Below the pieces are notes generated by a model. The model did not search any database. It saw only the letters and a program-made list of their open reading frames with translations, and was not told where the DNA came from. From a virus (taxonomy: Duplodnaviria; Caudoviricetes): a stretch of 64,000 nt of DNA. The position numbers and the translations under genes were made by a program. Location of the stretch: IMG/VR virus record IMGVR_UViG_3300027740_000003, positions 352,001 through 416,000 of that record, one strand, 5' to 3'. Of this stretch, positions 1,163 to 49,301 are shown piece after piece; positions within the stretch are counted from its first letter, which is position 1, and each line of letters begins with the position of its first letter.

Positions 1163-1456
1163 TTATTCTATTATATCCTTAATGATTAGTTCTTCATTTG
1201 ATAACTTTTTAATATATTCTCCCACAAACAATTTGGGCAATATTTCCCACCAATAACGAATTAAAACTGAGCCTGACTTTTTATATTCTTCAATGTAAAC
1301 AAACCAAATACCATTAGTATACATATCTGTGTTGCCATCAATGTTTTTAACAAATCCAATAACATAACAATTGTTTTCCTCAAAAGAAATCGGGCCTCCT
1401 ATATTATAAGTTTTATTACAATAATAAACTCCCCCTAACTCTGGACCCAATATCAT
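1163..1456 (-). CDS. IKDIIE-tail small protein (class C)
   Basis: Ends LSNEELIIKDIIE*; YxCxK...ExNxCY body shared with neighbour. Confidence 0.85.
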   Translation of the reverse strand: MILGPELGGVYYCNKTYNIGGPISFEENNCYVIGFVKNIDGNTDMYTNGIWFVYIEEYKKSGSVLIRYWWEILPKLFVGEYIKKLSNEELIIKDIIE

Positions 1457-1731
1457 TCAATTATATCCTTAATCATTACTTCTTCATCCGAAAGTTTTTC
1501 CAACACTCCAGATTCTATTAATTGGTTTAATATCCATTGAGTTGTCGTAAAACAATAACAGCTATTTTCTTCTGTTAATATACAATATAGCTCGTCATCC
1601 TCCCAATGGGTTTCTATATAACATTCATTTTCTATCAAAGTCATATTTAAATTAGACTTTAGACACAAGTAAACATTATAAAAATAGGCCTGAACTTCCC
1701 CAGAAAGAATATTCAGGCCCATCTTTTTCAT
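1453..1731 (-). CDS. IKDIIE-tail small protein (class C)
   Basis: Ends LSDEEVMIKDIIE*; ATGA overlap with next gene. Confidence 0.85.
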   Translation of the reverse strand: MKKMGLNILSGEVQAYFYNVYLCLKSNLNMTLIENECYIETHWEDDELYCILTEENSCYCFTTTQWILNQLIESGVLEKLSDEEVMIKDIIE

Positions 1732-1732
1732 T

Positions 1733-2062
1733 TTACAGCGACTTCTTTATAAACACACAATATCTTGCTTTAGCCTCATTAACTTTAATTCCATCCTTGT
1801 AAACCCTCGCCGCATCCTGATACACTTCCTTCTTTTCCTGCAAATCAGTATCAGCATCCATGTCTTTTTCAAAATCAGCAATATTCTCACTGTATTTTAC
1901 AATCATGCCATTTAAGTCTTCTTTATTTGCCTGCTGAGCTACGTCTAGAAAATCATCTGCTTTTCCAGATCCGTCATCATTTAAACAAAGCTTCTCTAAT
2001 ACTGTCCTCCACTTCTTTGGAAAATTATCTAACCTGGGATCTGTTGCTTTCTTTTTTGCCAT
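1733..2062 (-). CDS. hypothetical helical protein
   Basis: 109-aa ORF tightly packed between tig and the tail genes. Confidence 0.75.
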   Translation of the reverse strand: MAKKKATDPRLDNFPKKWRTVLEKLCLNDDGSGKADDFLDVAQQANKEDLNGMIVKYSENIADFEKDMDADTDLQEKKEVYQDAARVYKDGIKVNEAKARYCVFIKKSL

Positions 2063-2066
2063 TTTA

Positions 2067-3281
2067 TTATACTCCTACAATCTTTGTATTATCTACCAGC
2101 CACTGCAATGTATAGTCTACTTTTGCTTTAGCAATTAGGCCTATTAATGTTCCGTCCTGTGATGCTCTCTGTATCCAAGCATCAACATTCTGTATTCCCC
2201 TTTGGGCTAATGTCTGTTTTAGCATAGACACTGCCTCCAATTCAGAAATTACAGTCTCTGGTTCAGCTTTATTAATAGAATCAAGAATTAAAGTAAACTT
2301 AACGTTGTCTTTTCCTCTAGCAAGGTATGCAGTTTTAATATCTTCTTCTATTGTCTCCCAAAGTTTAAATCCTTCCATCATTGACATATGTTGAGCTTCC
2401 ATTAATACAGACCATGTTGGAGGCTCAAAATCATGTGAAGAAACCAATGTTGCCTTTATCTGCTCAGCAATCAATGAATCTCTATTTGATTTAAATTGGT
2501 TTTGAGCAATTGTTTTTGCCGTATTAAATAATTCTTCCAAACTATTCAAACCAACTTTTTTAGCCAATTCATCGTCAAGCGGAGCAGCAACCTGCTTCAT
2601 TCCCATATGAAAATTAACTTTACATGAAGTTTTCTTTCCATTAATATCCAACTCAAACTCTCGTGTTTCACCAGGAGACATTCCAAACAAGTTTTCATCA
2701 AATTCAGGATAGATCTTCTGCCCAACTTGATATAACTGACCCTCTTTTGTTTCTTCTCCTACAGTGTAGTCTAATGTGATTCTGTCTCCAGCTTGGATAA
2801 AATCACCGTCGCCATATGGAGTTATATCAGAATGTTGTGTTCTAACGCCTTGAACGATCTGCTCTGCCATTTCGTCCACTGTTTTAGGAGAATGTGGTTC
2901 TGGAACCTCAATTCCTTTATACTGTTTCAATTCAAAATCTGGTTTCTTAAGATAAACCAACTGACAAGAGAATTCATTGCCTTTTAATGAATGTTTTTCT
3001 ACTTGTGGTTGACCAAGAGGAGTCATTTTTGTTTCATAAATGACATCATCATTGGCTTGATTGAGCATTTCTCTTTCAACCCATTGCTTGATCTTATCTT
3101 TGAAATGAACTTTAATAGCAACATCTGTTGCTTTTCCTGGTCTAAAACCAGGAACCGGCAGCTTCTTAAGGTTATAAATTGCTTCCTTATTCTTTTCGGA
3201 AACCACCTTAGAATCTGCCGTGTAATTAACTCTAACTTTACAATATTCAATTTCTTCTGTTGATACTTGTAGTTCTGACAT
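2067..3281 (-). CDS. tig: trigger factor (ribosome-associated chaperone)
   Basis: Ribosome-binding loop VPGFRPGK, FKBP-like middle (GDRITLDY...PEFDENLFGMSPGETREFEL), helical C-terminal domain; start set at MSELQV (track start 3293). Confidence 0.9.
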   Translation of the reverse strand: MSELQVSTEEIEYCKVRVNYTADSKVVSEKNKEAIYNLKKLPVPGFRPGKATDVAIKVHFKDKIKQWVEREMLNQANDDVIYETKMTPLGQPQVEKHSLKGNEFSCQLVYLKKPDFELKQYKGIEVPEPHSPKTVDEMAEQIVQGVRTQHSDITPYGDGDFIQAGDRITLDYTVGEETKEGQLYQVGQKIYPEFDENLFGMSPGETREFELDINGKKTSCKVNFHMGMKQVAAPLDDELAKKVGLNSLEELFNTAKTIAQNQFKSNRDSLIAEQIKATLVSSHDFEPPTWSVLMEAQHMSMMEGFKLWETIEEDIKTAYLARGKDNVKFTLILDSINKAEPETVISELEAVSMLKQTLAQRGIQNVDAWIQRASQDGTLIGLIAKAKVDYTLQWLVDNTKIVGV

Positions 3282-3286
3282 ATTTT

Positions 3287-4132
3287 TTACCACTCCGTTT
3301 CACCAAACTTTTTTGAAGTTCCTGACTTTTTGTTTTTTCTTTCTTCGGCTTGTTTAATCCATTTCAAACCATCTGGACAATGTTCTGAATAATCACAATA
3401 AGGACAAAGAGGCCCAGTGTCTGGCCTAAATAATTTTTCTGCTGCTATCTCGGCAGTATAATCTCGAAAATCTTGTTCTATAGACATTACATTCTCTCGA
3501 CTAAATTCAAACTTAATTTCTTCAAAATCAAGCTTGAGCATAATATAAGATCCCCGAACTTTTTCTAATTTAGGATCCTCCAAACACATAGCATAAGCAT
3601 ATGTCTGTAATTGTAAATAATCCTTTTTTAGATACAAACCAGTTTTGCTTGTTTTATAATCATCTAGATGCAAAACTCCATCTGCATCCAATTTAACCAA
3701 ATCAATAAATCCATTCAATAAAACATTATCGCCAATATCTATTGTAAACTCTTTTTCCGCCGCAATTGGAACATAATTATATGTAATTCTTTTTTTCAAA
3801 TATGAGCAAAGAATATCAAAAGCTTCTTTTTTTTGTTCCTGTGTTATTTGTGGCCAATTTTTCAATGCATTGGCAAAAATTGCTTTCATTAAAATATGAT
3901 ATTTTTCTTTATTCCCTGCAATAATGGCCTTTTCAAATTTTTCTAAACACTCATGAAGAAATTTTCCAAAAACCTGGAACTCCCATTCCTTTTTCGGCAA
4001 TTTCTTAATATAATTAAATAGATACTTAGCTTTGCATTGTTTAAATGTTTTTGCTTTGCTTACGGATAGATGAAAATAATTACGTCTATCCTGTGGCAGG
4101 ACCGTTAACAACTTACCTTGATTTTTTATCAT
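3287..4132 (-). CDS. PD-(D/E)XK nuclease, RecB/AddB/Cas4-like with Fe-S staple cysteines
   Basis: LSVSKAKTFKQC, GFIDLV...DDYKTS, QLQTYA, C-terminal CPYCDYSEHC. Confidence 0.88.
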   Translation of the reverse strand: MIKNQGKLLTVLPQDRRNYFHLSVSKAKTFKQCKAKYLFNYIKKLPKKEWEFQVFGKFLHECLEKFEKAIIAGNKEKYHILMKAIFANALKNWPQITQEQKKEAFDILCSYLKKRITYNYVPIAAEKEFTIDIGDNVLLNGFIDLVKLDADGVLHLDDYKTSKTGLYLKKDYLQLQTYAYAMCLEDPKLEKVRGSYIMLKLDFEEIKFEFSRENVMSIEQDFRDYTAEIAAEKLFRPDTGPLCPYCDYSEHCPDGLKWIKQAEERKNKKSGTSKKFGETEW

Positions 4133-5115
4133 CTGTATACAGATCTCTTAAATGGAATCCACTTAAATACTTTACCAGAACTAACCTGGCGTGGAAAAAG
4201 AACATCACTCATTGCACTAACCGTAGTGGATTGTCTAACCGGCTCAATCGACATTATCCACCGATTTGTTTCTGAGTCCCTGTAGTAGAACGTATAAGTG
4301 TTATCTTTTTCATTGTACTGAGGTCTTAATAATGACCCCGTGTTTCCATTTCCTTCAAATGCAGTCGTGTTATACATTATTCCATTTCGAAGCCTTTCCT
4401 GATCCCCAAGAGAAAAGAATTGCCTGTTTATTAATGGATTAACCGGATTTTCATTTTCCTCCCTACCATCCTGAATAATCACTAAAGCCCTAGCGTCAAA
4501 TAATCTACTATTTGCATCCGACATTGTAGGTGGAGGTGGTCTTTGAAGAATAACCACATGGGCAGGTAAATTTCCTATATTTCTTCCTGTTTCACCTTTC
4601 CAATTAGATTCAGAATACTTTATATCATAATTAGTTCTATGATATGACTCTAATGGCTCAACAACAACAGTTCCGGTAGCTGTTCCATCATATCCATCAG
4701 GAACACCAACAACACCTTCTTTTTCTACAATTACACCGGCCGTATTGCCATAACTTACATGTATGTTAGGAAATCCCGAACCAAATGCTTTATTATCTGT
4801 GTATGTGCTCGCCGGATCTAAACCTATCACAACATCATGAGCCTGACGCAAACCAGACCATGTATGTCCATATGTATATGTAATTACTGGTCCGATATCA
4901 ATCCCGTCAGTAGCAAACAATTTTAAATTAACAGTATTTTGATCTGTAGGTAAAGTTATTGGTCCCACAGATATATCTGAATCAAAAGTTGGGTTAGTTC
5001 CATCAGTAGTATAATACACAGTTGCAGGTATATTAGTGCCAATAACAATAGTTTTAGGAATACCAGCAATAACCTGGATAGGGCTGTCTGTAATTGTAAT
5101 AAGGACTACTGCCAT
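4129..5115 (-). CDS. putative virion/structural protein with Fn3-associated (chitobiase C-terminal-like) Ig domain
   Basis: N-terminal ATVYYTTDGTNPTFDS motif; beta-rich, Thr/Gly-rich. Confidence 0.55.
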   Translation of the reverse strand: MAVVLITITDSPIQVIAGIPKTIVIGTNIPATVYYTTDGTNPTFDSDISVGPITLPTDQNTVNLKLFATDGIDIGPVITYTYGHTWSGLRQAHDVVIGLDPASTYTDNKAFGSGFPNIHVSYGNTAGVIVEKEGVVGVPDGYDGTATGTVVVEPLESYHRTNYDIKYSESNWKGETGRNIGNLPAHVVILQRPPPPTMSDANSRLFDARALVIIQDGREENENPVNPLINRQFFSLGDQERLRNGIMYNTTAFEGNGNTGSLLRPQYNEKDNTYTFYYRDSETNRWIMSIEPVRQSTTVSAMSDVLFPRQVSSGKVFKWIPFKRSVYR

Positions 5116-5421
5116 TTAACCAACCATATGCAAAAACTTCTCGGAAGTTTTCTTATTTTCATTAAGTTTTAATAATCTACGATAAACAGTATGAGCGGCT
5201 CTTCGGAATACCTTTCCTAATTCAAAATAACCCTCTTCTCCGGAGCCTCTATATAAAGCAAAAAATGATTCAGAAACAAGAAGCATATCTAAATCCGGAT
5301 TTGCTCCTGGAGTTATTCCTTTAAGAAGTCCATCTCCAATTAACTCAGAATACACCCCGTCTCTTCCTTTTGCTTTGAGGAGATTGGTATAGTGGTTTAG
5401 GGTTGTGTTTTTGAGTTTCAT
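5116..5421 (-). CDS. hypothetical protein
   Basis: 101-aa ORF abutting next gene. Confidence 0.7.
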   Translation of the reverse strand: MKLKNTTLNHYTNLLKAKGRDGVYSELIGDGLLKGITPGANPDLDMLLVSESFFALYRGSGEEGYFELGKVFRRAAHTVYRRLLKLNENKKTSEKFLHMVG

Positions 5422-5436
5422 TATGTATTTATACCA

Positions 5437-6285
5437 TTATATACCTATGGTTTTTAACACTTTAGTTTTAAGATCATCTAAAGTTCCATTATTTTCAACC
5501 ACATAATCCCAGGGCGAATTCGGATCATTTGTCTTGTATTTGTTTAAATCGTTTTCGCTTATATGATCTAAATTTGGTCCGGCAGGCAGTTTTTCTACAG
5601 GTCTAACTATTAATAATATTTTCCCGCCATTTGATCTGATACAACTTATTTCATTAAAAAACCTTACATCACTAAATACAACGTTTTCCGTCCTATAATT
5701 TTTAGCTAGATTTTGTGGTTCTGAAACTCCTTTAATTTGATTATATCGAGAATACGCTTTTCCTATATACCTTTCTTCTGGTCCAGAATAAAATTTAGGT
5801 TGTACATAAACGTATTCATGAGGAACGCCGTCTATTAATTGTTTTGCAATATTCATTGCGAAATTGGCCCAAGTATCAGTATAACAGTCTCTGCCCCAAT
5901 CTGTCCCAAGCTGTTGTATTGCATATCTTGGTGTAAGATAACATTGTGGTATTTCTGCATTATGCTTTATAATTTCATATCCGCAACATTTGCATTTTCT
6001 AAACTCATTAAATGAATGTTCTCTTGGATACCTTTTATCTAATTCATTTCTTTTTTCTGACGGTCCCCATAATTGATCTTCAGAAAATCCATAAACTTTT
6101 ACACAAATTCTTTTTATTTCATCTGCCAAAGTAATTTTTGTGAACCTATATTGTTCAACCAAAATATCTGTTGCTTTATCTTTTCCTGTGCCCATAGAAC
6201 ACATATTACCATTTGGGTCAACAGATCTTCCTATAATACCAAGAATCATATCCAATCCTCCGGAATTTTTTCTGGGAAATACCAC
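5437..6285 (-). CDS. deoxynucleoside monophosphate kinase (T4 gp1-like) with insertions
   Basis: P-loop-like GIIG...GTGKD, TPRYAIQQLGTDWGRD, FSDVRFFNE, HISE, VENNGTLDDL. Confidence 0.85.
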   Translation of the reverse strand: MVFPRKNSGGLDMILGIIGRSVDPNGNMCSMGTGKDKATDILVEQYRFTKITLADEIKRICVKVYGFSEDQLWGPSEKRNELDKRYPREHSFNEFRKCKCCGYEIIKHNAEIPQCYLTPRYAIQQLGTDWGRDCYTDTWANFAMNIAKQLIDGVPHEYVYVQPKFYSGPEERYIGKAYSRYNQIKGVSEPQNLAKNYRTENVVFSDVRFFNEISCIRSNGGKILLIVRPVEKLPAGPNLDHISENDLNKYKTNDPNSPWDYVVENNGTLDDLKTKVLKTIGI

Positions 6286-14889: not shown

Positions 14890-15405
14890 TTATTTTCCAC
14901 AACACTTTTTGCTCTTAATTCCCGATCCACAAGGACATAAATCATTAGGCCTAACCTTGTTTTTCTTTACAACATCTTCTTTAATCGCAACGTCAGGCAA
15001 AAGAACTCCTCTTAAATGATCAGATTCGTGTTGTACTACAACAGCAAGCATATCTGTTGCAACAAAACCGTTAGGATAACATCCGTTAATTACATGAATT
15101 TCATTATATCTTCTAGTCTTTTCTCTCTTGCCAGGAAAAGAGAGACACCCTTCGCCATCAACAATTTTTAAATCAAACTGCTTTTCAATTATTGGATTAA
15201 CTAAATCAATTGATATCTTTCCCGGCCTAATAATTGCCATCTTTTTATAGATACCAATTTGAGGCGCCGCTAAGCCAACCCCCTCATTGCCTCTTTCTCC
15301 AGATAGCTTTAGTTCTTTTTCTAAAGCAACACGTATTTCTTCTACTTCTTCTGGTAAAACATCTTCACATTTTATTCGAAGAAGTTTTTCATCGGTTATA
15401 ATCAT
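14890..15405 (-). CDS. def: peptide deformylase with C-terminal SEC-C zinc motif
   Basis: GVGLAAPQIG, EGCLSF, QHESDH; tail RPNDLCPCGSGIKSKKCCG. Confidence 0.93.
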   Translation of the reverse strand: MIITDEKLLRIKCEDVLPEEVEEIRVALEKELKLSGERGNEGVGLAAPQIGIYKKMAIIRPGKISIDLVNPIIEKQFDLKIVDGEGCLSFPGKREKTRRYNEIHVINGCYPNGFVATDMLAVVVQHESDHLRGVLLPDVAIKEDVVKKNKVRPNDLCPCGSGIKSKKCCGK

Positions 15406-15878: not shown

Positions 15879-16360
15879 TTATTATCCTTTATGTTTTTTA
15901 TTAACCACACCATTGATGGAAGATTTTTTGATATTTCTTCGGAAATATCATCTCCTTTACTAACAAATTCTATAACAGAATGGAAAGATCCGTCTTTCAA
16001 CCTTTCCTCAAATAATCTAAATTCAACAGGCTCATAACTATTTGTTTTCAACCCTACATTTGTTTTATAAGTCAACGAAACATTAACTAACGGATTTTGT
16101 CTAAATGTTTTAGTGTTTAAACCAGACTTAATTAATTTTTCTTTCAAATTCTCTAAATGAGACTGGGTTTGTTTTAATTCTTCTTTCAAAGAATTTGATT
16201 TTTTTAAATAGCACTCATTACATAGCCACATTGTTCCCCAACCCAAACCACCACCAAGCAAAACTGGAAACGTTTGTTGTTGCTCATGTAGTGTTTTAGG
16301 ATCATCACAAAGCTCACATAAACCACAATTATCTTCTAATGAAGAAAACGCTTTCGTCAT
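15875..16360 (-). CDS. hypothetical protein with split CxxC/CxxC zinc site
   Basis: CELCD...LCNEC. Confidence 0.65.
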   Translation of the reverse strand: MTKAFSSLEDNCGLCELCDDPKTLHEQQQTFPVLLGGGLGWGTMWLCNECYLKKSNSLKEELKQTQSHLENLKEKLIKSGLNTKTFRQNPLVNVSLTYKTNVGLKTNSYEPVEFRLFEERLKDGSFHSVIEFVSKGDDISEEISKNLPSMVWLIKNIKDNK

Positions 16361-16914
16361 GATGCCTTTGCTTCCTTTTTCTTACCAAGAGTTGCAGAAA
16401 GAACCTTTCCCTGCATTGAAGGCACATCTAGAAATTCAGCATTTGGAATCATTTCCAAAAACTTGTTCAAAGTCTGCATTCCAACTTCCCTGTGAGTAAT
16501 CTCCCTGCCTCTGAAAATAATGAATACCTTGACCTTGTCCCCATCGGCTAAAAACTCAGAAGCTTTATTTGCCTTGGTCCTAAGATCATTAATATCTGTT
16601 GTCGGTCGGAATTTAAGCTCTTTAATCTTTATAACAGCTTCCCTGTTCTTTTTTTCGGACTCTTTACGCTTTTTTGTCTGCTCATACTTGAATTTGCCAT
16701 AATCTAATATTTTACAAACCGGAATTCCTTGCTGACCATCAGCAATAAGAACAAGATCTAGTTCTTGCTCCTTTGCTTTATTTATAGCCTCTTCCTTGGT
16801 TAGTGTCCCAAGGTTATTACCATCCTTATCTATGCAAACAACTTGTGTTGCCCTAATTCGGTAATTAATCGGTTTGTCCTTATCTGTCCTATTAAAATTT
16901 TTGTTATATACCAT
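16357..16914 (-). CDS. infC: translation initiation factor IF-3
   Basis: INYRIR, LDLVLIA, PVCKILDYGKFKYE, IKELKFRP, GDKVKVFIIFRGRE. Confidence 0.96.
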   Translation of the reverse strand: MVYNKNFNRTDKDKPINYRIRATQVVCIDKDGNNLGTLTKEEAINKAKEQELDLVLIADGQQGIPVCKILDYGKFKYEQTKKRKESEKKNREAVIKIKELKFRPTTDINDLRTKANKASEFLADGDKVKVFIIFRGREITHREVGMQTLNKFLEMIPNAEFLDVPSMQGKVLSATLGKKKEAKAS

Positions 16915-26285: not shown

Positions 26286-26570
26286 TTATTCTATTATATC
26301 TTTAATCATCATTTCTACACAAAGCAAAACGTCATTATTCCCATAATATGAACCCTTGTAAATATAATAAAAAGGATATTTTGTTGACATTGGCCTTAAC
26401 TGAGATATAATCTGAAAAAATTCTATATCAGTATCAGTATCAGAATGATTAATACAACGCATACCACATTTTTTACAATTATAAACTCTCGATTCGTTAG
26501 AATTATCTAAAGGTTTATAATTGTCGTCTATGATAAATTCATGATCCTTCTTTGCTTCTTCCGGCAGCAT
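26286..26570 (-). CDS. IKDIIE-tail small protein (class B, Zn-binding)
   Basis: KKDHEF...CKKC...LLCVEMMIKDIIE*. Confidence 0.88.
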   Translation of the reverse strand: MLPEEAKKDHEFIIDDNYKPLDNSNESRVYNCKKCGMRCINHSDTDTDIEFFQIISQLRPMSTKYPFYYIYKGSYYGNNDVLLCVEMMIKDIIE

Positions 26571-26794
26571 TATTCTATTATATCCTTGATAATATATTCG
26601 TCATATCTAAGACACGGATAATAATCATCTAACAAAAGCCAGTCAGCAATCTTTAATCTTCTCAATACATCTCCTTGATTTTGATCTAAAGAATTTAATA
26701 AAAGAGCATAAAATTTTCCACAATGTATACATTTCCCATCAATAAAACGATGTCTTATTCTGTCTCCCGTTATTTCTATTCTGTTATTTTTCAT
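26570..26794 (-). CDS. IKDIIE-tail small protein (class B)
   Basis: HRF...CIHCGK...YYPCLRYDEYIIKDIIE*. Confidence 0.88.
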   Translation of the reverse strand: MKNNRIEITGDRIRHRFIDGKCIHCGKFYALLLNSLDQNQGDVLRRLKIADWLLLDDYYPCLRYDEYIIKDIIE

Positions 26795-26803: not shown

Positions 26804-27097
26804 TTATTCTATTATATTTTTTATAATTATCTCATCACAAGAAAGCTCCTGTAATTCATAAGACGTTTCCCATAAAATTGGTTTTCCATATCCAACATAA
26901 AACCCTTGATCTAAAGCTTTCATGTTGTATATGTTTTCTTGCCAATCGTTTTCATTTTTATAAAGACGTAAAACTAAACCACATTTTTTACATTTATAAT
27001 TGATAAAATCAAAATCATAAGCTCTATTACCTAGGGAAAAACCTTGATCATAAAAAATTACAAATTCGTGATCCTTCTTTCCTTCTTCCAGCAACAT
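26804..27097 (-). CDS. IKNIIE-tail small protein (class B)
   Basis: KKDHEF...CKKC...LSCDEIIIKNIIE*. Confidence 0.88.
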   Translation of the reverse strand: MLLEEGKKDHEFVIFYDQGFSLGNRAYDFDFINYKCKKCGLVLRLYKNENDWQENIYNMKALDQGFYVGYGKPILWETSYELQELSCDEIIIKNIIE

Positions 27098-27384
27098 TAT
27101 TCTATTATGTCCTTTATAACCATATCAATACACGACATTTGTTGAGCTTCATATGAAAGTTTATATGTTCTAAAATCATAATACCAGCCCTGTTCATATG
27201 CCAAACTGTTATATACATTTTTAATACACAATTCCGGATTTTCAATTACACATAATGTAATTTTACATTTGCTGCATCTATAATAATGCATGTCAGAATT
27301 TTTACATTCGGGAAGATCATATCTTTCAGTTGAAATGAAAACAAAATTATGATCAGCAATGGCACTTTCAGGAATTGGTCTCAT
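27097..27384 (-). CDS. IKDIIE-tail small protein (class B)
   Basis: ADHNF...CSKC...MSCIDMVIKDIIE*. Confidence 0.88.
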   Translation of the reverse strand: MRPIPESAIADHNFVFISTERYDLPECKNSDMHYYRCSKCKITLCVIENPELCIKNVYNSLAYEQGWYYDFRTYKLSYEAQQMSCIDMVIKDIIE

Positions 27385-27614
27385 TCAATAATGTCCTTTA
27401 TCATTGCTTCACTCTCTGTTAAACATGGATAATATTTGTCTAAAACGGAATCTATAATATCAAATGTTTGTCCGAAAGAACGACTATATTCTTTTTCATG
27501 TTCTTTTTTTAATTTGTTCAATAACAAAAAATAACTTTTCCCGCAAATTCTGCACCCATATCCATTTTGGTTTTGAAAATGAACAAACCTATGATTCATT
27601 CTCTTTTCTGGCAT
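27381..27614 (-). CDS. IKDIIE-tail small protein (class B)
   Basis: NHRF...CRICGK...YYPCLTESEAMIKDIIE*. Confidence 0.88.
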   Translation of the reverse strand: MPEKRMNHRFVHFQNQNGYGCRICGKSYFLLLNKLKKEHEKEYSRSFGQTFDIIDSVLDKYYPCLTESEAMIKDIIE

Positions 27615-33965: not shown

Positions 33966-34262
33966 TTATTCTCCACGACCCTGTTGTCTACGTTCCTGCT
34001 TCTTCTTCATTCTCTTTCCCCATTCACCAGATTGAACGAGTCTCATTTTATATTCATATGCAAGCCTCTTCTCAGTAGCCTCCCTTGCCTTCCGACGTTT
34101 CTTCACAGAAGGTTTTTCGTATTGCTGTCTTTCCTTGTATTCAGCAATAACTCCCTCCCTTTGAACTAAATTTTTAAAAGCTTTTGCTGATTGTTCAAAA
34201 TCATCTGGGTTTCTAACTATTACCTGCAATGGTTTAAACTTGTTTAGATAATCATCATTCAT
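33966..34262 (-). CDS. rpsU: ribosomal protein bS21 homolog
   Basis: VIVRNPDDFEQSAKAFKNLVQREGVIAEYKERQQYEKPSVKKRRK. Confidence 0.88.
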   Translation of the reverse strand: MNDDYLNKFKPLQVIVRNPDDFEQSAKAFKNLVQREGVIAEYKERQQYEKPSVKKRRKAREATEKRLAYEYKMRLVQSGEWGKRMKKKQERRQQGRGE

Positions 34263-34264: not shown

Positions 34265-35584
34265 TTACTCTATTCCTATTTTTGTTTGATTTTCCGAGAT
34301 AAAGTCTGAATCAACATTTTTCTTGTCAGATAAAAGTTGCTTCATAGCTTTTTCTATGTCCTTCTTCTGTGGGTTTTCTCTTCCAGAAGATAAAGCATGG
34401 AATGCTGAAGTAATATATAACTCCTTAAGATAAGCATATGAAAACTTTCTTTCGACCGCAATTTTTACAATATAATTCAAATTATTCTGTCTAATAGAAT
34501 TACCATACCATTTTTGAAGATATTTCATTGCCAAATCCTCTGTTGGCAAAGGAAATTCCCATTTTCTATCAAATCGAGACGGTCTGTTAAGAACAGCTCC
34601 GCCTAACCTTGATAAATCATTTGCGGTAGCAACAACCAATATTCCATTCCTAGAATATACCCCATCCATTAAATTCAAAAAATGAGACAGGCTAACATTG
34701 CCATTCCCCAACAAAGTATCTAAATCCTCAAAATAAAGCAATGCCGGCTCTTGATCTTGCGCATATTCAAATGCATCTGTTATTACTTCGTCATTGGTCT
34801 GTTGGCCAGTCATAACCGTCACTGGCTTGAAATCATAGTTGGAAATAATCGTTTTAATGCAGCTGGACTTACCCAGGCCTACATCACCATACAAAAGCAC
34901 ACCCCGCTTCCAAGGAATTTGCTTTTTTGCATACATTTCTTTAGCAGAAAGGAACCCTTCTACAGTACCTCTAATCTGGTCTTTAAGATCTTCTGGTAAG
35001 AACAAATCATCCCAAGACATATTCTTCTCATAAGGAATACTCTCAGCACCAACCACATGGATCTCTAAATTGTTCCTATCTCTCTCCGTAAGCCAGTCAT
35101 CAAACGTATTTCTTAATTCAATATACTTTTCATAATCTTTGTCATCCATAATTGCAAAAAAAGACACCTCGTCCTCATTCTGATTTCCTTTATGAAATAA
35201 AGCTGCATGTAGGAACTGTAGCTTCTTATAAGAAATTTTAAATACTCCTTGGGCCATAAAATGTTCATTATGGTTATCACTCCTCCAAGAAGCAACTGAA
35301 TCTCGATATAAACACTCTATCTTTACACCTACTTGTTCAGAAAATTCAAAAAAAGCCCCATCCATAACTATTTTATTATGGATCCAACAATGTAATAGAC
35401 CTACATTGTTAGTTATACTAGTTCCAAAAGTATCTTTGGCCCAATGCATTAACTCAATTAAATTTTGAGTTGGTCTTTGATTAAAGGTCCAGTTATTTTT
35501 TGGATTTAATAAATCAAGTCTTTTTGCACTAAGATGTTCTTGTAAATCAACCTGCTCTTCAGTTAAATAGTTATTTTCAGCCAT
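34265..35584 (-). CDS. AAA+ ATPase (BCS1/FtsH-like ATPase module, no protease domain)
   Basis: WKRGVLLYGDVGLGKS, YFEDLD, ATAN, LNRPSRFD. Confidence 0.9.
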   Translation of the reverse strand: MAENNYLTEEQVDLQEHLSAKRLDLLNPKNNWTFNQRPTQNLIELMHWAKDTFGTSITNNVGLLHCWIHNKIVMDGAFFEFSEQVGVKIECLYRDSVASWRSDNHNEHFMAQGVFKISYKKLQFLHAALFHKGNQNEDEVSFFAIMDDKDYEKYIELRNTFDDWLTERDRNNLEIHVVGAESIPYEKNMSWDDLFLPEDLKDQIRGTVEGFLSAKEMYAKKQIPWKRGVLLYGDVGLGKSSCIKTIISNYDFKPVTVMTGQQTNDEVITDAFEYAQDQEPALLYFEDLDTLLGNGNVSLSHFLNLMDGVYSRNGILVVATANDLSRLGGAVLNRPSRFDRKWEFPLPTEDLAMKYLQKWYGNSIRQNNLNYIVKIAVERKFSYAYLKELYITSAFHALSSGRENPQKKDIEKAMKQLLSDKKNVDSDFISENQTKIGIE

Positions 35585-38709: not shown

Positions 38710-39009
38710 TTATTCTATTATATCTTTTATCATCATGTCAACACACGTATAGTTGCAATATTCTGACCCATCTATATAATACCACGAATCATTAATCCAT
38801 TTATCCCGTGATAATTCATTAACCAATCCGCCATAAACAGTATCTATAAACGTTTTTAAATCTAAAACATAAATACATTTAATATTGCATTTATTACATT
38901 TATATACAATAAAACTTTTATAACTATAATCAATATAGAATTTATGATCTTTCTTTACTTCTTTTGGAATAATTACATTGGTTGTTTTATAATATCCTTT
39001 ATAACTCAT
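38710..39009 (-). CDS. IKDIIE-tail small protein (class B)
   Basis: KKDHKF...CNKC...YTCVDMMIKDIIE*; start re-set to ATGA-coupled MSYKG. Confidence 0.88.
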   Translation of the reverse strand: MSYKGYYKTTNVIIPKEVKKDHKFYIDYSYKSFIVYKCNKCNIKCIYVLDLKTFIDTVYGGLVNELSRDKWINDSWYYIDGSEYCNYTCVDMMIKDIIE

Positions 39010-39260
39010 TCTATAATATCCTTTATCATCATATCTACACACGTATAATTATTTATACTTTTACCATTATACATATACCACCACTGTTTTCCTTTGGAAG
39101 TTAAAGGTCTTAAAAAATCCTCAGCATTATCTAAAACAACTACACAAATTAGTTTGCATTTGCTACATACATAATACGTATAATATATTCCTTCAAAATG
39201 AAAATCAAAATTATGATCTTTCTTTGCCCCGTCCGGTAATGGAAATTTGTTCTCAGTCAT
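39006..39260 (-). CDS. IKDIIE-tail small protein (class B)
   Basis: KKDHNF...CSKC...YTCVDMMIKDIIE*. Confidence 0.88.
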   Translation of the reverse strand: MTENKFPLPDGAKKDHNFDFHFEGIYYTYYVCSKCKLICVVVLDNAEDFLRPLTSKGKQWWYMYNGKSINNYTCVDMMIKDIIE

Positions 39261-39727
39261 TCTATAATATCTTTTATAGCCAAATTATCTAATATTTCTT
39301 GTTCGTATTCTGTATTTATTAAATATTTAGCGCAAAAAACAACTATTTCTTCATCATATTTAGATTCATTTATAGCTAACATGCATAGTTCTTTGGACGG
39401 TTTTCTTATCCATATAATTGCTCTAGGATAGTTTTTAATAATTTCCATTTTGTATTCTTCAGAAAGGTTTGCCGTATCAACATTAGTTAATATGGATTCA
39501 TTTGTACTACCTATCGCATAAAGAATAACTTCAAGCGACGGTTCTTCTATATGAAATAGAGAATCTTCATCATTTTCCACTGCCACTTTTTGTAATCTAA
39601 TTGTTTGTTGTTCTTTAGGAAGAAAATAAATATTATAAGGGTTGTCTTTAATCATTGATAATATTTGTTTTTTATTTTTTGGATCATATTCTATCGTTTT
39701 AACAATAAGATCATTTAAAGATTTCAT
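39257..39727 (-). CDS. IKDIIE-tail protein with short helical repeats (class D, DUF4116-like)
   Basis: Repeats IKDNPYNIYFL / VENDEDSLFHIEEPSLEVILYAI / IKNYPRAIIWIRKPSKELCMLAI; ends LAIKDIIE*. Confidence 0.85.
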   Translation of the reverse strand: MKSLNDLIVKTIEYDPKNKKQILSMIKDNPYNIYFLPKEQQTIRLQKVAVENDEDSLFHIEEPSLEVILYAIGSTNESILTNVDTANLSEEYKMEIIKNYPRAIIWIRKPSKELCMLAINESKYDEEIVVFCAKYLINTEYEQEILDNLAIKDIIE

Positions 39728-43003: not shown

Positions 43004-43023
43004 CAAAATGCCTTGAGATTATA

Positions 43024-43519: not shown

Positions 43520-43750
43520 TTATGGGGCCCATGTCCAAACCCAATCCTGAGGCCAATTATCATCCGCACTAATAAGTGCGCATTCTTCACACTCCAAAAT
43601 TATACTCCAGCCATTCTTTGTTTCAACATATCCCATCAGAGGAGAAAAATTACCATGTCCCAGCAAACTTGGCCTTAACACCACTATATTAGCCCTCTTA
43701 TTTATTAAGAGCCTTGGGTCTTCTCTTTTCCAAATATCCATCAGAACCAT
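43520..43750 (-). CDS. hypothetical protein
   Basis: 76-aa ORF. Confidence 0.6.
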   Translation of the reverse strand: MVLMDIWKREDPRLLINKRANIVVLRPSLLGHGNFSPLMGYVETKNGWSIILECEECALISADDNWPQDWVWTWAP

Positions 43751-44814: not shown

Positions 44815-45295
44815 AATAATCTTCTAGCTCTTTTTCAGCAATTTCTTTTTCTGTTTTAAAATACTCTTTTACTTTATTTATTATAACATCAGATATCCCA
44901 TATATAACAAATTTTTCTTGCCAATCCTTATCAGGTCTATCACCATAACTACTAGCTTCACCGACAGTAAGACAACAAGGATTAGAATAAACCTTAAATC
45001 CATCTATTTCCAGATATGGCCAAACTTCAACAGGGGAATCACCACAACAACCACAATCATGTCCAATTTCACATTTGTCCACCAATGAATTGACAGATTT
45101 AGAATACCACCTTTCTCTTTTCCACCGATTGGTATGTTTTTTAAGATCAGGATATAAAACTGCTAATTTTCTTAGCTCGGCCATTTTATTTAATATTAGC
45201 GACGCCTCTTTCTTTAATAATTCTATTTGATAATCTATACATAATAATCTTTCTTGTTCCGCTAAGAATTCATCTTGTTCTTCTTTAGTTCTCAT
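44801..45295 (-). CDS. hypothetical protein (CGCCG motif)
   Basis: 164-aa ORF. Confidence 0.7.
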   Translation of the reverse strand: MRTKEEQDEFLAEQERLLCIDYQIELLKKEASLILNKMAELRKLAVLYPDLKKHTNRWKRERWYSKSVNSLVDKCEIGHDCGCCGDSPVEVWPYLEIDGFKVYSNPCCLTVGEASSYGDRPDKDWQEKFVIYGISDVIINKVKEYFKTEKEIAEKELEDYYGDK

Positions 45296-46191
45296 AACAA
45301 ATTCCTGTTCTTTTCAATTATTTGTTGAATGTCTCTTAATGCCTGGACGGCCTTGTCTGGATTAACAATTGCATCGGAAAGAGATCCGTAATGTTCTTCA
45401 AGGCAGTTCAAAAGGAGTTGTTTTATAGCGCCTTCATCTGGAGAGTGGCGCAGGGTAGATTCTTCGTAAAGTTTATCTAGATACTTCTCTTTCTGGGAGA
45501 ACCATTCGTTTATATCTTCCATGGACTTTTCTCCTCGACGAACGGCTTTTAGAATTTCTCTATTTCTTTCGAGGTCAAGATCTCCTTCTAGAAGAATTTG
45601 CTCTGCTTGCATGGCCAGCCGCAGAACGTGATAGGCGAATTTTGTTTCTAGTCCGTACTTTTCTACGTTTGCCGCCCTCTTTGATCCGGGCTGATATCCT
45701 TCTATTTTCATTTTATGTAATTGTGAAAATGAGTATCCGATGTACTTTTGTTTCGCCCCCCGATGAAGGAACATCTTTCTTTTTTCTCTAATCATTTGTC
45801 CAATACGAGTAATATGCAATACGCATCTTTCTGGAACAAATAAAGAGTCAATCATGTTTGGATTATTCTCCATACATAATTGAAAGTATTTAACAATACT
45901 ATACACAGAACAATCATATTCTTTTCCTTTATCCGGATCTTTAATATGATGTTCTTGATATTGTTCAAATCTTTTTATTTGATTTCCGAATCCGGGAATT
46001 TCTCCACGAAGATGGGGAAAAATCATATCTTTTGGAGGGATACAGAATCCATAGATATCGATATCACTATCATTGGAAGAAACACCATAAGCCTCTGATC
46101 CCATAATGACTTCGTAATGAATATTAGAAGGAAGCCATTGTGGCGGATGAATAATCTGATTTTGAGCTAATCTTGATACTACACTTGGCAT
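45292..46191 (-). CDS. Pol-beta-superfamily nucleotidyltransferase (YcgL/RlaP-like)
   Basis: GSEAYGVSSNDSDIDIYG, ENNPNMIDSLF, KFAYHVLRL. Confidence 0.85.
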   Translation of the reverse strand: MPSVVSRLAQNQIIHPPQWLPSNIHYEVIMGSEAYGVSSNDSDIDIYGFCIPPKDMIFPHLRGEIPGFGNQIKRFEQYQEHHIKDPDKGKEYDCSVYSIVKYFQLCMENNPNMIDSLFVPERCVLHITRIGQMIREKRKMFLHRGAKQKYIGYSFSQLHKMKIEGYQPGSKRAANVEKYGLETKFAYHVLRLAMQAEQILLEGDLDLERNREILKAVRRGEKSMEDINEWFSQKEKYLDKLYEESTLRHSPDEGAIKQLLLNCLEEHYGSLSDAIVNPDKAVQALRDIQQIIEKNRNLL

Positions 46192-46202
46192 TTTATTATT
46201 CC

Positions 46203-46502
46203 TTATTCTATTATATCTTTTATCATTAACTCGTTTTTAGATAATACAAATATTTCTGCATCCTCAGAAAGTACCGCCAACATAATTTCTTCCGGAAAAT
46301 CTTCGTTAAAAGCTATATATATTTTATAACTATTATTAAAGTTTTGAGAGATATGTTCTTTAATACAATCTCTAATTTCAACTTCAAGACAGAAACTTTT
46401 AAATTTTGGCCAGTGAAGCCAACTCATTTTACCATTATTATAACTAATATAGAATCGTTCTCCAGATTTAATACATAAAGTTTTACACCCAACACATCCC
46501 AT
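46203..46502 (-). CDS. IKDIIE-tail small protein (class A)
   Basis: GCKTLCIKSGE...LSKNELMIKDIIE*. Confidence 0.88.
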   Translation of the reverse strand: MGCVGCKTLCIKSGERFYISYNNGKMSWLHWPKFKSFCLEVEIRDCIKEHISQNFNNSYKIYIAFNEDFPEEIMLAVLSEDAEIFVLSKNELMIKDIIE

Positions 46503-46786
46503 TATTCTATTATATCCTTAATTATCATCTCTTCTTTGGAAAGAATTTTAACACAATTTATATATTGTTCTTCAATAAAATAACCTAGAAATAAACAATC
46601 TTGAAAAAAACAAACTAATGAATAAAAATCTTCTTTTTTAGAATTAAAATCATTAAACCAATATCCGCATGTGGAAAAATCAACTTTGTTTACATCGTCT
46701 CCTGTTTTATACAGCTTTTTTATATTAGATAAGTATACTCCCTCTCCTTCTTTCAAAATAATAACTTTATGTCCTATACAAGGCAT
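46502..46786 (-). CDS. IKDIIE-tail small protein (class A)
   Basis: GHKVIILKEGE...LSKEEMIIKDIIE*. Confidence 0.88.
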   Translation of the reverse strand: MPCIGHKVIILKEGEGVYLSNIKKLYKTGDDVNKVDFSTCGYWFNDFNSKKEDFYSLVCFFQDCLFLGYFIEEQYINCVKILSKEEMIIKDIIE

Positions 46787-47154
46787 TATTCTATTATATC
46801 CTTAATTATCATTTCATCTTCTGACAATATTTTATATCTTGTATCAGACCATTCTGATACAACAAACATTGAATATGCCCCATCTTCCCAATTTACAATA
46901 ACCATTTTAGGATCCAAACAATTCAATTTTGCAATTTCCTCAAATACACATAACATAGTTTCATAATACCAATTATACGAAACGCTATTAGTATATATTT
47001 TATTAGGATAAAATATATCGTTTTTCGTAATAGTTCCACCGACTTTGTTTTTAATATTTAAAAATTTACACATCCCCGACATTGATAAATCAAACATAAT
47101 ATCATTATGATTAAGATCAAAAACAACCTCCCATTGAGATTCCTTCTTGGCCAT
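46786..47154 (-). CDS. IKDIIE-tail small protein (class A-like)
   Basis: MVIVNWEDG...LSEDEMIIKDIIE*. Confidence 0.88.
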   Translation of the reverse strand: MAKKESQWEVVFDLNHNDIMFDLSMSGMCKFLNIKNKVGGTITKNDIFYPNKIYTNSVSYNWYYETMLCVFEEIAKLNCLDPKMVIVNWEDGAYSMFVVSEWSDTRYKILSEDEMIIKDIIE

Positions 47155-47432
47155 TATTCTATAATGTCCTTAATCATCATTTCATCTTCGGTAAGAATTA
47201 CTATTTTTTCCCAATCATATGCTATAATAAAATTGTAATAATTTTTCCACATAAAAGTATATATTATTGTAGGATCGGGCAAAGTTTGAAACCCTTTATA
47301 TATATCTTTATAATTCACATGTTGGTTATAACCAAGCCTTTTATTAAACAAACGTATATATTTTTTATTACCATGCACAATAAAACCTTCATCTCCATCA
47401 TTCATAATAACAGTTTTACAAGCAATAATCAT
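47154..47432 (-). CDS. IKDIIE-tail small protein (class A)
   Basis: ACKTVIMNDGDE...LTEDEMMIKDIIE*. Confidence 0.88.
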   Translation of the reverse strand: MIIACKTVIMNDGDEGFIVHGNKKYIRLFNKRLGYNQHVNYKDIYKGFQTLPDPTIIYTFMWKNYYNFIIAYDWEKIVILTEDEMMIKDIIE

Positions 47433-47712
47433 TCAATGATGTCCTTTATCATTATTTCGTCTTCAGTAAGAATTTGAATCATTTCTATTTGATTTGGTTT
47501 TAAAAAACCACAAGTATAACAGCCATCATCATAAAAAATTATATACGACATCACTTCTTCGTCTTTATTTAAACCCCATTAATCCATTGAGTATAGTGCT
47601 TAAAAACATCTTCTAAAAATGGGGATTTATTAAGCCATCCATTGCCTAAATAACCACTACAACGTGCTAGCTTTCCTCCTTTAACATAAAATGTTTTATG
47701 ACCAACCAACAT
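47429..47712 (-). pseudogene. frameshifted IKDIIE-tail gene, recent duplicate of 48464-48748
   Basis: MLVGHKTFYVKGGKLARCSGYLGNGWLNKSPFLEDVFKHY then 1-nt loss in T-run (A3 at 47571-47573 vs A4 at 48606-48609); other frame continues ...QILTEDEIMIKDIIE*. Confidence 0.85.
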
Positions 47713-48011
47713 TATTCAATGATGTCCTTTATCATTAAATCATCTTCGGTAAGAATTATATATTTTAAATATTTAGAGTGTACCACCAATAAATAAGAAC
47801 CTTCTTCCCAAAACACATTTAAAAATATTAAACTCAGATTATATAACTCTCTACTATGAATCCAAATTTTATTTTCTCGGAAAAATTTTGAATCACCCTC
47901 TCTAATTTCATGTGGATTTTTAACGATTGACGGTTCGTCTGAAGGAAGACTACGATCAATAAATAAACACTGATCGTCTTTTAAAACAATTGTTTTAAAC
48001 TCAAAATCCAT
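47712..48011 (-). CDS. IKDIIE-tail small protein (class A)
   Basis: MDFEFKTIVLKDD...LTEDDLMIKDIIE*. Confidence 0.88.
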   Translation of the reverse strand: MDFEFKTIVLKDDQCLFIDRSLPSDEPSIVKNPHEIREGDSKFFRENKIWIHSRELYNLSLIFLNVFWEEGSYLLVVHSKYLKYIILTEDDLMIKDIIE

Positions 48012-48012
48012 A

Positions 48013-48288
48013 TTATTCAATGATATCTTTAATTATCAAATCGTCTTCGGTAAGAATGTTTATTTTATCAAGTCGTTCTAAAGGAACAATTCCGGCACTG
48101 CAAAAACCATCATCATAGAAAATGAAATACAAAACCTCCGAACAATCTATATGGCGCTGTTCTATTATTTTATTTATAAACTGAAAAGTATCCGAAAAAT
48201 CACTCTTCACAATGTCAAGATTTTCATCTGAAAAATAAGCCCGCTTTGCTCCTTTTACATATTCAAATGCTTTAACATTATAATTCAC
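48013..48288 (-). CDS. IKDIIE-tail small protein (class A)
   Basis: GTGA-coupled start; YFIFYDDG...LTEDDLIIKDIIE*. Confidence 0.88.
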   Translation of the reverse strand: MNYNVKAFEYVKGAKRAYFSDENLDIVKSDFSDTFQFINKIIEQRHIDCSEVLYFIFYDDGFCSAGIVPLERLDKINILTEDDLIIKDIIE

Positions 48289-48467
48289 TTGTTTTTGTCC
48301 CACTCTCTCTTAACAATCTCTCTAATAAATTCTTTTGAAATATGAGAGTCCTCAATTGCCAAATTGCCATAAACAAATGATACGGCTTGCTCAAACCTTT
48401 CTTCATCAGTCATTTTATAATCTTTAACTGATTCAAGCAATTCTTTAAGCTCTTTAGACATCGTCAT
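48285..48467 (-). CDS. small protein without tail embedded in the array
   Basis: 60 aa, coupled on both sides. Confidence 0.7.
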   Translation of the reverse strand: MTMSKELKELLESVKDYKMTDEERFEQAVSFVYGNLAIEDSHISKEFIREIVKREWDKNK

Positions 48468-48748
48468 TCTATTATATCCTTAATCATTAAGTCGTCTTCG
48501 GTAAGAATTTGCATCATTTTTATTTGATTTAGTGTTAAAAATCCATTAGTATAATAACCGTCATCATAAAAAATTATATACGACATCATTTCTTCATCTC
48601 CATTTAAAACCACTTCAATCCAATGATTATAGTGCTTAAAAACATCTTCTAAAAATGGGGATTTAATAAACCACCCATCACCAAAATAACCACTACAACG
48701 TGCTAATTTTCCTCCCTTAACATAAAATGTTTTATGACCAACCAACAT
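48464..48748 (-). CDS. IKDIIE-tail small protein (class A)
   Basis: MLVGHKTFYVKGG...YIIFYDDG...LTEDDLMIKDIIE*. Confidence 0.9.
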   Translation of the reverse strand: MLVGHKTFYVKGGKLARCSGYFGDGWFIKSPFLEDVFKHYNHWIEVVLNGDEEMMSYIIFYDDGYYTNGFLTLNQIKMMQILTEDDLMIKDIIE

Positions 48749-49023
48749 TATTCAATAATATCCTTTATCATTATTTCGTCTTCAGTGAGAATTTGTAATG
48801 AATCCAGCATTTCCTCAGAAAGAAAACCAGAACCCACTTTACCATCTTCAAAAAAAATTATATATGATATAAACTCTTCGGTTTGAGACAAAATATGCTT
48901 CATCCTATTTGCATAAAACTTCAATGTTTCTTGAGTATTTTCCTTAATAATTTTAAACTTAGCAGGCCCAACGTAAGCCTCTTTGCCATCTTTAACATAA
49001 AATGTTTTATGACCAACCAACAT
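48748..49023 (-). CDS. IKDIIE-tail small protein (class A)
   Basis: MLVGHKTFYVKDG...YIIFFEDG...LTEDEIMIKDIIE*. Confidence 0.9.
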   Translation of the reverse strand: MLVGHKTFYVKDGKEAYVGPAKFKIIKENTQETLKFYANRMKHILSQTEEFISYIIFFEDGKVGSGFLSEEMLDSLQILTEDEIMIKDIIE

Positions 49024-49301
49024 TATTCAATAATGTCCTTAATCATTAAATCATCATCAGTCAATACATAAATGTTAGTTTCTCTGTTAGAAAAATATCT
49101 ATAATCAACATTACCTTCGGGCCAGAAAATTGTTAAAAATAAAAAACAATAATTATCTTTTTTATTTAATGCTTTAATAGCATTATCACAACACCAATTC
49201 CTTTCCTCACTATTATTACGTAATTCCTTATTAAAATTAAATAGATGATCTCCTTCCTTTAAAACAATTACTTTATAGTTAAATTCATCTGGGGCTTCCA
49301 T
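49023..49301 (-). CDS. IKDIIE-tail small protein (class A)
   Basis: NYKVIVLKEGD...TIFWPEG...LTDDDLMIKDIIE*. Confidence 0.9.
   Translation of the reverse strand: MEAPDEFNYKVIVLKEGDHLFNFNKELRNNSEERNWCCDNAIKALNKKDNYCFLFLTIFWPEGNVDYRYFSNRETNIYVLTDDDLMIKDIIE

Follow-up and report, generated by a model that had tools for sequence, protein, structure and literature searches.

We describe a short C-terminal peptide that recurs on many small proteins with unrelated bodies encoded in a 64,000-nucleotide stretch of viral DNA (the window), which corresponds to bases 352,001–416,000 of the virus record IMGVR_UViG_3300027740_000003 (here G000; 435,004 bp, G+C content 35%, scored by CheckV as 100% complete), obtained from soil DNA. 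The peptide is a 13-residue tail, L-[T/S]-x-D-E-h-h-IKDIIE, followed directly by a stop codon, and it is kept by strong selection on both its amino acid sequence and its terminal position while the bodies to which it is attached turn over. From its sequence the tail reads as a hydrophobic staple, an N-cap with a capping box, and then a three-turn helix, and the interpretation that we favor, with a probability of about one half, is that it is a portable, N-capped C-terminal helix recognized by one common partner.

The initial annotation of the window listed 20 minus-strand open reading frames (ORFs) ending in IK[DN]IIE-stop. A six-frame scan recovers all 20 at the coordinates listed below and none on the plus strand, stop-to-stop translations confirm the bodies and start codons, and the single copy ending in IKNIIE-stop is indeed the ORF at 26804. 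When the pattern searches proposed in that annotation are extended to the complete genome and its relatives, many more copies are found in G000, in a related virus record (G001), and in metagenome fragments. A degenerate DNA pattern for IKDIIE-stop has 74 matches in G000 and its reversed control has none, such that the tail pattern is not a product of chance. Among the ~721 ORF-genes called in this analysis, 105 (~15%, about one in seven) match the strict protein pattern, and a looser pattern raises this to 111 ORFs, each 55 residues or longer. In G000 every one of the 80 six-frame occurrences of IK[DNE]I[IVL]E lies directly before a stop codon, and none is internal. The tagged proteins are short, with a median length of 96 residues, six exceeding 200, and a maximum of 439, and their genes are unevenly placed: 53 of the 162 genes at 115–190 kb and 43 of the 184 at 340–435 kb are tagged, as against one of the 130 in the virion module (190–340 kb) and none of the 143 at 60–115 kb.

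Residue counts over the 111 G000 copies, numbered backwards from the stop codon, are L (73) at −13; T or S (64), and also I and C, at −12; variable at −11; D (73) at −10; E (60) at −9; L or M at −8; M or I at −7; I (108) at −6; K (102) at −5; D (102) at −4; I (104) at −3; I (111) at −2; and E (89) at −1. The upstream helix N-cap pattern L-[TS]-x-[DE]-[DE]-h-h, first noted in the window, thus holds across the whole set. The last residue is Glu in 80% of the copies and Gln, Lys, Thr or Leu in the rest.

When the last six tail codons are compared over all pairs of copies, identity is 0.85–1.00 at codon positions 1 and 2 and 0.43–0.56 at position 3, and the latter is the value expected from G000 codon usage at equilibrium. 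The synonymous variation that had been taken to indicate selection on the peptide and its free terminus is present at every tail codon, and because the amino acids hardly vary although the wobble sites are saturated, it is the peptide that is under selection; the presence of all 80 copies at a stop extends this to the terminal position. Adjacent tagged genes are barely more alike at wobble positions than random pairs (identity 0.64 versus 0.54), so recent duplication or gene conversion does not account for the identity of the tails. We also considered a recombination scar or cassette junction, comparable to the promoter stem-loops of T4-type phages, and rejected it because saturated wobble positions leave no DNA identity on which to recombine.

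Part of the codon bias in the tail, specifically the AAG codon for Lys and the final GAA, serves initiation of the next gene, a feature missed in the initial annotation. The end of a tagged gene overlaps the start of the next (as ATGA or TAATG) in 70% of cases, compared with 27% for other genes. The tail Lys codon is AAG in 44% of copies but in only 11% of Lys codons in the bodies of the same genes, and its share reaches 57% in tails whose stop is overlapped by the next ATG, as against 27% in the others. The codons AAG-GAY place AGGA 13 nt upstream of the overlapping ATG, which coincides with the AGGA peak before long G000 genes, and among last codons GAA (82 copies), which creates the overlapping ATG, far outnumbers GAG (seven). 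The Lys-Asp codons (AAG GAY) are therefore often also a Shine-Dalgarno site, with GA-ATG-A forming the start of the coupled downstream gene; the DNA thus encodes a strongly selected peptide and at the same time provides the next gene with its ribosome-binding site and start.

The tail-bearing genes of the window are as follows, with lengths in amino acids (aa).

1163..1456, minus strand: tail-bearing gene, 97 aa; singleton body; ends LSNEELIIKDIIE
1453..1731, minus strand: tail-bearing gene, 92 aa; singleton body; ends LSDEEVMIKDIIE; stop overlaps start of next gene
26286..26570, minus strand: tail-bearing gene, 94 aa; H/CxxC/C zinc family (pooled cluster 0)
26570..26794, minus strand: tail-bearing gene, 74 aa; small H/CxxC family, paired with 27381
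26804..27097, minus strand: tail-bearing gene, 97 aa; H/CxxC/C zinc family; IKNIIE variant
27097..27384, minus strand: tail-bearing gene, 95 aa; H/CxxC/C zinc family; fold predicted, with C-terminal helix 85–94
27381..27614, minus strand: tail-bearing gene, 77 aa; small H/CxxC family
38710..39009, minus strand: tail-bearing gene, 99 aa; H/CxxC/C zinc family; ATG overlaps upstream stop; alternative GTG at 39042
39006..39260, minus strand: tail-bearing gene, 84 aa; H/CxxC/C zinc family
39257..39727, minus strand: tail-bearing gene, 156 aa; DUF4116 alpha-solenoid; tail is the last helix, 142–155
46203..46502, minus strand: tail-bearing gene, 99 aa; first of a 10-gene array between RlaP-like and histidine-phosphatase genes
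46502..46786, minus strand: tail-bearing gene, 94 aa; same family as 48013, 48464 and 48748
46786..47154, minus strand: tail-bearing gene, 122 aa; singleton body
47154..47432, minus strand: tail-bearing gene, 92 aa; singleton body
47429..47715, minus strand: frameshifted duplicate of 48464–48751; tail still in frame with the 3′ piece
47712..48011, minus strand: tail-bearing gene, ~99 aa; alternative TTG start at 48020
48013..48303, minus strand: tail-bearing gene, 96 aa; GTG start
48464..48748, minus strand: tail-bearing gene, 94 aa; family with 46502, 48013 and 48748
48748..49023, minus strand: tail-bearing gene, 91 aa; family with 46502, 48013 and 48464
49023..49301, minus strand: tail-bearing gene, 92 aa; last (5′-most) of the array

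The ORF at 47429 was initially described as frameshifted, and this is borne out by the comparison of 47429–47715 with 48464–48751, which have ~88% DNA identity and differ by a 1-nt deletion that splits the former into pieces of 47 and 41 codons. It is a recent tandem duplicate that has been inactivated, and its tail differs from that of the parent copy by three synonymous changes. Pfam gives no support to a likeness between a 60-aa ORF nearby (48285–48467) and VbhA antitoxins.

The bodies were compared with the last 13–14 residues masked, as the initial annotation had proposed. At a BLASTP threshold of 1e-3 those of G000 fall into 72 clusters, and the pooled set of 325 tagged proteins from G000, G001, and the metagenome loci into 141. 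Profile-profile comparison of the 15 clusters with at least three members finds links only among the zinc-knuckle clusters. The claim that the bodies are unrelated is therefore sustained at the level of sequence profiles and of folds, although two of the four classes originally proposed, the His/Cys zinc class and the 'YxCxK' class, prove to be the same or related zinc families. The largest pooled cluster has 100 members, including the genes at 26286, 26804, 27097, 38710, and 39006, and is a single H/CxxC/C family, while ORFs 26570 and 27381 form a second, small CxxC family. In an alignment of 83 sequences of the larger zinc family, C37, C40, and C85 are invariant and H12 is nearly so. C85 is tail position −11, so that in this class the start of the tail itself would supply a metal ligand, a point not recognized in the initial annotation. 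The AlphaFold2 model of 27097–27384 (predicted local distance difference test score, pLDDT, of 71) has a three-stranded sheet and a C-terminal helix at residues 85–94. These four putative ligands and the predicted three-stranded sheet may belong to a protein of the zinc-ribbon kind; fold searches with the model give no significant match, only weak ones to ribbons of the NrdR, WRKY, and TFIIS types. Among 5.8 billion proteins the only homologue of the product of 26804–27097 is itself, with none outside G000.

The second pooled cluster (26 members) includes 39257–39727 and is of the DUF4116 alpha-solenoid type, which is represented by this gene and 14 other G000 copies. The Pfam match to DUF4116 (E 0.0079) is below the curated level, and the assignment is made from the tandem helical repeats of ~22–25 residues with the I-K-N-P-S...Q-L-x-A-V signature that are visible in the alignment. 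Its AlphaFold2 model is all helical (pLDDT 87.5), the tail forming helix 142–155, and the top 30 clusters in the AlphaFold DB are almost all DUF4116 with a probability of 1.00. A common fold for all of the masked bodies, which would have made the tagged genes an ordinary paralogous family, is thus not what is found: the same tail is attached to both a zinc beta-sheet and a DUF4116 solenoid. Beyond the weak DUF4116 match, Pfam and PHROGs give nothing for the 20 window proteins, and a search for look-alikes of one array member in the ESM Atlas gave no usable match. Within these phages nearly all homologues of the bodies keep the tail, and those scored as tail-less are tail variants or frameshifted copies. 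For example, the DUF4116 gene at G000:150169–150707 has lost its tail by frameshift, leaving a truncated ORF of 132 aa followed by an eight-codon ORF, M-M-IKDIIE.

The tail is also abundant in G001 (IMGVR_UViG_3300028920_000022; 458,729 bp; G+C content 39.5%), which is syntenic with G000, has roughly 235 proteins in common with it, core proteins being ~44–60% identical, and contains ~115–130 tagged genes with the consensus [IL]-[TS]-C-x-[ED]-h-I-I-[KR]-[ED]-I-I-[EK]-stop. Searches of metagenome contigs matched 46 loci, about 30 of which have tagged ORFs and are fragments of relatives (30–98% protein identity to G000), and further carriers in IMG/VR include a 131-kb contig (G+C content 24%, 11 tags in 8 kb) and one of 38 kb that has 13 tags. 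The G+C content of carrier contigs ranges from 24% to 47%, which suggests that they have different hosts; if so, the component that reads the tail would be either phage-encoded or a universally conserved part of the host.

The nearest cultured relative is Bacillus phage G (498 kb), whose major capsid protein is 51% identical to that of G000 (298570–299583; L097). Only 44 of the ~721 G000 ORFs have a phage G homologue, however, and G000 thus represents a distant, uncultured soil branch of the phage G lineage. Phage G contains no tag, nor any C-terminal 6-mer common to more than four of its genes, and a megablast search of the tag array against cultured phages found no match. Among 185,579 prokaryote species genomes there are 10 single matches, near chance expectation, and none ends an ORF of at least 40 codons. 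A profile of the tail (145 sequences, last 32 residues) has no match at E ≤ 0.001 among 1.84 billion representative proteins, a database of that size being too large for HMMER to detect so short a motif, and its best match among PDB sequences (E 0.2) is meaningless. A search of the literature library found no paper in it with IKDIIE in this sense, and the sequencing runs that contain the sequence are of soil DNA only, with no RNA runs.

Comparison with close relatives illustrates how quickly the tagged genes change. Flanking genes are 75–95% identical, whereas the tagged genes are 30–60% identical or have no match, and the tail is unchanged. The slot between the RlaP-like and histidine phosphatase genes contains 10 tagged genes in G000, two in the contigs L141 and L162, and one or two in L031; that between the topoisomerase and metallophosphatase genes contains three in G000 and one in L162. 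In L132 (a 467-kb NCBI contig) and L133, which are more distantly related, a set of genes that forms a conserved backbone (DksA/TraR, ClpP, DUF192, FtsK-like, Topo I, AAA, bS21, MT-A70, PDF/SEC-C, SbcD, and SbcC) occupies 21 kb with no tagged gene, and the same backbone spans ~51 kb in G000 (window 8700–59700). The extra length in G000 consists of accessory inserts, including NUDIX, histidine phosphatase, RlaP-like, and metallophosphatase genes as well as the tag arrays. The tagged genes thus behave as an accessory gene pool, probably a host-directed one, and their filling of fixed slots in a conserved backbone represents one route by which megaphage genomes grow.

Several phage genes are candidates for the partner. 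G000 encodes a true ClpP (window 58663–59280, 180 bits), and its relatives hold two ClpP genes. No ClpX/ClpA-type AAA_2 ATPase was found in G000, and a phage-encoded partner of the ClpX type is rejected on this basis. The AAA gene at 34265–35584, which adjoins Topo I, belongs to the classical clade and resembles B. subtilis YjoB and the Cdc48 D2 domain; YjoB is described as a substrate-specific chaperone (PMC9565160). There are 310 homologues in the AAA family, located on huge-phage contigs and in many cases on contigs of 450–490 kb; some homologues contain inteins, and in one case there is a fusion to a Topo I zinc ribbon. Many of the homologues inspected end in [IVM]-G-[IFL]-x-COOH (IGIE, IGIR, IGFG, and similar), with another subgroup ending in KYFK. 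ClpX-type ATPases dock on ClpP through an IG[IF]-like tripeptide, and in these homologues the tripeptide has moved to the extreme C-terminus, unlike its placement in ClpX-type proteins. To judge from these termini, the sequences suggest a phage-encoded AAA-ClpP protease of unusual design, and since G000 has both ClpP and an AAA whose family shows a ClpP-docking-like C-terminal IG[IF], the idea of a protease as partner is not empty. A complex prediction between the AAA N-domain (residues 1–200, 82-sequence alignment) and a tagged zinc protein (83 sequences) scored 0.00, with no controls run, and is evidence neither way.

The densest tag array, in which 19 of 27 genes are tagged, lies outside the window and holds an ATPase gene and a zincin/VWA gene. 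The latter (G000:417643–418836) encodes a DUF2201 protein with a zincin-like HExxH motif (HEWLH) and a VWA domain with an intact DxSxS MIDAS (DTSAS), and the former (G000:420921–422234) a phrog_1297 ATPase whose AAA_5 match is weak. In G001 the VWA gene is immediately preceded by a tagged gene, and the ATPase gene has another within ~300 bp on its upstream side. The activity of the CbbQ-CbbO system requires a C-terminal motif in the client, as well as an acidic client residue that is presumed to bind the VWA MIDAS (PMC5437159). The ATPase, the VWA protein, and ClpP all have apparent homologues in phage G, which lacks the tail, so that presence alone does not single out any of the three. Searches with the TPR_12 and PDZ_2 models, the only two such models used, gave no match in G000 or G001 and were positive in control genomes. 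An FtsK/SpoIIIE-like ATPase is encoded at window positions 54218–55219, and no secretion system was identified in the phage.

In the mechanism that we propose, a soil and sediment megaphage clade related to Bacillus phage G has placed the tail on more than 100 small accessory proteins per genome, these being fast-evolving, structurally unrelated, and encoded in expandable arrays between conserved core genes. The 13 residues would form a short, self-nucleating helix at the chain end with a free carboxyl, acting as a common handle that gives access to one machine, while specificity, for instance toward different host or defense targets, would come from the variable bodies. The candidate partners would be the phage AAA/ClpP pair, the ATPase/VWA-MIDAS pair, or a conserved host hub. 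We favor a common handle because of the obligatory exact chain end, the near-invariant polar residues across folds, and the free turnover of the bodies. That the tail is helical is predicted by AlphaFold2 in both of the classes that were folded, the zinc and DUF4116 proteins, and is in keeping with a covariation among G001 tails, where position −5 is basic in 66 of 73 copies with E at −1 and in 18 of 36 with K (Fisher 6e-6), as expected of an i,i+4 pair within a helix. A more specific version, in which the helix routes ~15% of the proteome to a phage ATP-driven machine (AAA/ClpP or ATPase/VWA-MIDAS) and the bodies are exchangeable adaptors that deliver host or defense proteins for unfolding or destruction, we regard as rather improbable.

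There are observations that count against a common partner, and several of them favor an alternative in which the tail would be an integral, self-nucleating structural helix that caps or stabilizes small domains and has spread by recombination as a folding aid, with no common partner, an explanation that we regard as unlikely. In the zinc family (83 members) the start of the tail is anchored in the fold through the invariant Cys at −11, the helix standing after the last metal ligand, and the high confidence of the tail helix in both AlphaFold2 models fits packing on its own body. In G001 the polar positions are looser (K/R/Q/M, E/D/S/N/G, and E/K/T), as would be the case if structure depended on the hydrophobic face alone. 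Compared with shuffled sequences, the consensus has an unremarkable hydrophobic moment, and our description of the tail is therefore confined to a helix whose last two turns have a patch of four Ile/Met residues, with no further claim to amphipathicity. Moreover, no partner was found, the sole complex prediction being uninformative and neither a TPR_12 nor a PDZ_2 domain being encoded. The textbook N-cap and hydrophobic-staple pattern and the −5/−1 covariation, which fits an intrahelical salt bridge, also suit a structural helix. Such a helix, however, needs no exact chain end, yet none of the 80 copies is internal; K, D, and E are 80–92% invariant across unrelated G000 folds despite saturated synonymous sites; and one identical helix is unlikely to suit both the core of a zinc beta-sheet and that of an alpha-solenoid. 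The clustering of four Ile/Met residues on the last two helical turns, together with the probable co-expression of many copies from coupled arrays, could instead point to tails that bind one another, forming homo- or hetero-oligomers in mixed bundles or a matrix, but a net acidic helix of 10–12 residues is short for a stable bundle and oligomerization needs no free terminus, so that this has long odds against it.

Delivery to the capsid is a special case of docking in which the tail would be a targeting signal for prohead loading and co-injection. Terminal capsid signals are N-terminal in the T4 internal proteins and C-terminal in the HK97 protease and in encapsulin cargo; shells with the HK97 fold take cargo by such short terminal peptides, and the major capsid protein here is of the HK97 lineage. 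We nevertheless consider capsid targeting very unlikely, as the virion module contains a single tagged gene, a strong membrane-spanning segment is present in six of the 325 tagged proteins, there is no precedent for so many as 100 or more species of cargo, and phage G lacks the tail in spite of its similar capsid protein. Least credible of all is that the conservation serves translation, either as a coupling cassette of Shine-Dalgarno site, AT-rich spacer, and overlapping start, or as a nascent-peptide context for termination by a phage release factor. Although the enrichment of AAG and GAA is tied to overlapping downstream starts, AGGA is at the optimal spacing for the genome, and the clade encodes IF3, bS21, deformylase, and trigger factor, the variation is strictly of period three, with non-wobble positions fixed and wobble positions at equilibrium; in 43% of coupled tails the Lys codon is AAA, leaving no Shine-Dalgarno match; and the 30% of tails without an overlapping downstream gene are unchanged. 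Coupling is thus not the cause of peptide conservation. The conserved N-cap segment is, in addition, upstream of any ribosome-binding site, and most coupled G000 genes have other C-termini.

Several known systems join a body that varies to a terminal peptide that does not (T4 internal proteins, SspB/ClpX, ESCRT-III/Vps4, PRANC proteins, Dot/Icm effectors, and encapsulin cargo), but none of them matches the tail in sequence, in position, or in scale. The T4 internal proteins (IPI, IPII, IPIII, and the hypervariable IP locus) are similar in having a fast-changing locus, unrelated small bodies, one short terminal peptide, and one destination. The T4 signal, however, is N-terminal, is cut by the prohead protease, and is present on a handful of proteins, whereas the tail described here is C-terminal, ends the chain, and is found on more than 100 genes. 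The XB tail of SspB, which binds the ClpX zinc domain, and the MIM of ESCRT-III, which binds the Vps4 MIT, are likewise extreme C-terminal peptides on variable bodies read by the N-domain of an unfoldase, although these systems have one or a few adaptors with no sequence likeness to the tail, as opposed to 15% of a proteome. MoxR/VWA pairs such as CbbQ-CbbO acting on Rubisco recognize a C-terminal client motif, and ATPase and MIDAS-VWA genes lie inside the densest tail array here; CbbQO has one client, however, while hundreds of proteins are tagged here, the phage ATPase is only weakly similar to AAA_5, and both genes have homologues in a phage without the tail. The poxvirus ankyrin/PRANC proteins and the F-box/BTB expansions of giant viruses also join a variable binding domain to a constant C-terminal adaptor for one host machine, but PRANC is a folded F-box-like domain of ~50 residues that engages eukaryotic ubiquitin ligases, unlike a 13-residue tail, and Pfam shows no PRANC or F-box-like match in the 20 window proteins. 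Legionella Dot/Icm effectors with a Glu-rich E-block comprise hundreds of unrelated bodies with an acidic, hydrophobic C-terminal signal and one ATPase-coupled reader; their signal is degenerate, whereas the phage tail is near-invariant. C-degrons of the ssrA-like or tail-specific-protease type have non-polar last residues (e.g. LAA-COOH), and the predominance of a terminal Glu does not conform to this.

Huge phages have small orphan genes by the hundred, and in this one clade a large share of them constitutes a single functional class defined by a short peptide and not by a fold. Identification of the reader of the tail would at one stroke give more than 100 orphan genes in each genome a common mechanism. 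Should that reader prove to be a protease or a remodeling ATPase, the bodies would amount to a natural library of binders, probably directed against host or defense proteins, and the tail to a possible compact tag for use in bacteria. If the tail does address proteins to an ATP-driven machine, this would be the bacterial-virus counterpart of the F-box/PRANC strategy of giant viruses.

Two further groups of proteins are of note. The six tagged proteins with a strongly hydrophobic 19-residue segment (Kyte-Doolittle mean 2.2–3.1) are probably membrane-anchored, as judged from their sequences; they include G000:19431–19709, G001:17401–17901, 155817–156146, and 422998–423432, and a member on contig L054, and the first of these adjoins a second AAA paralogue (G000:19975–21330). 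The window also contains a set of ribosome and nascent-chain genes, at 2067–3293, 14890–15405, 16357–16914, and 33966–34262, which comprises trigger factor (with matches to the N-domain), a peptide deformylase fused to a SecA-type SEC-C zinc motif, IF3, and bS21, and which is retained in the 459-kb relative G001.

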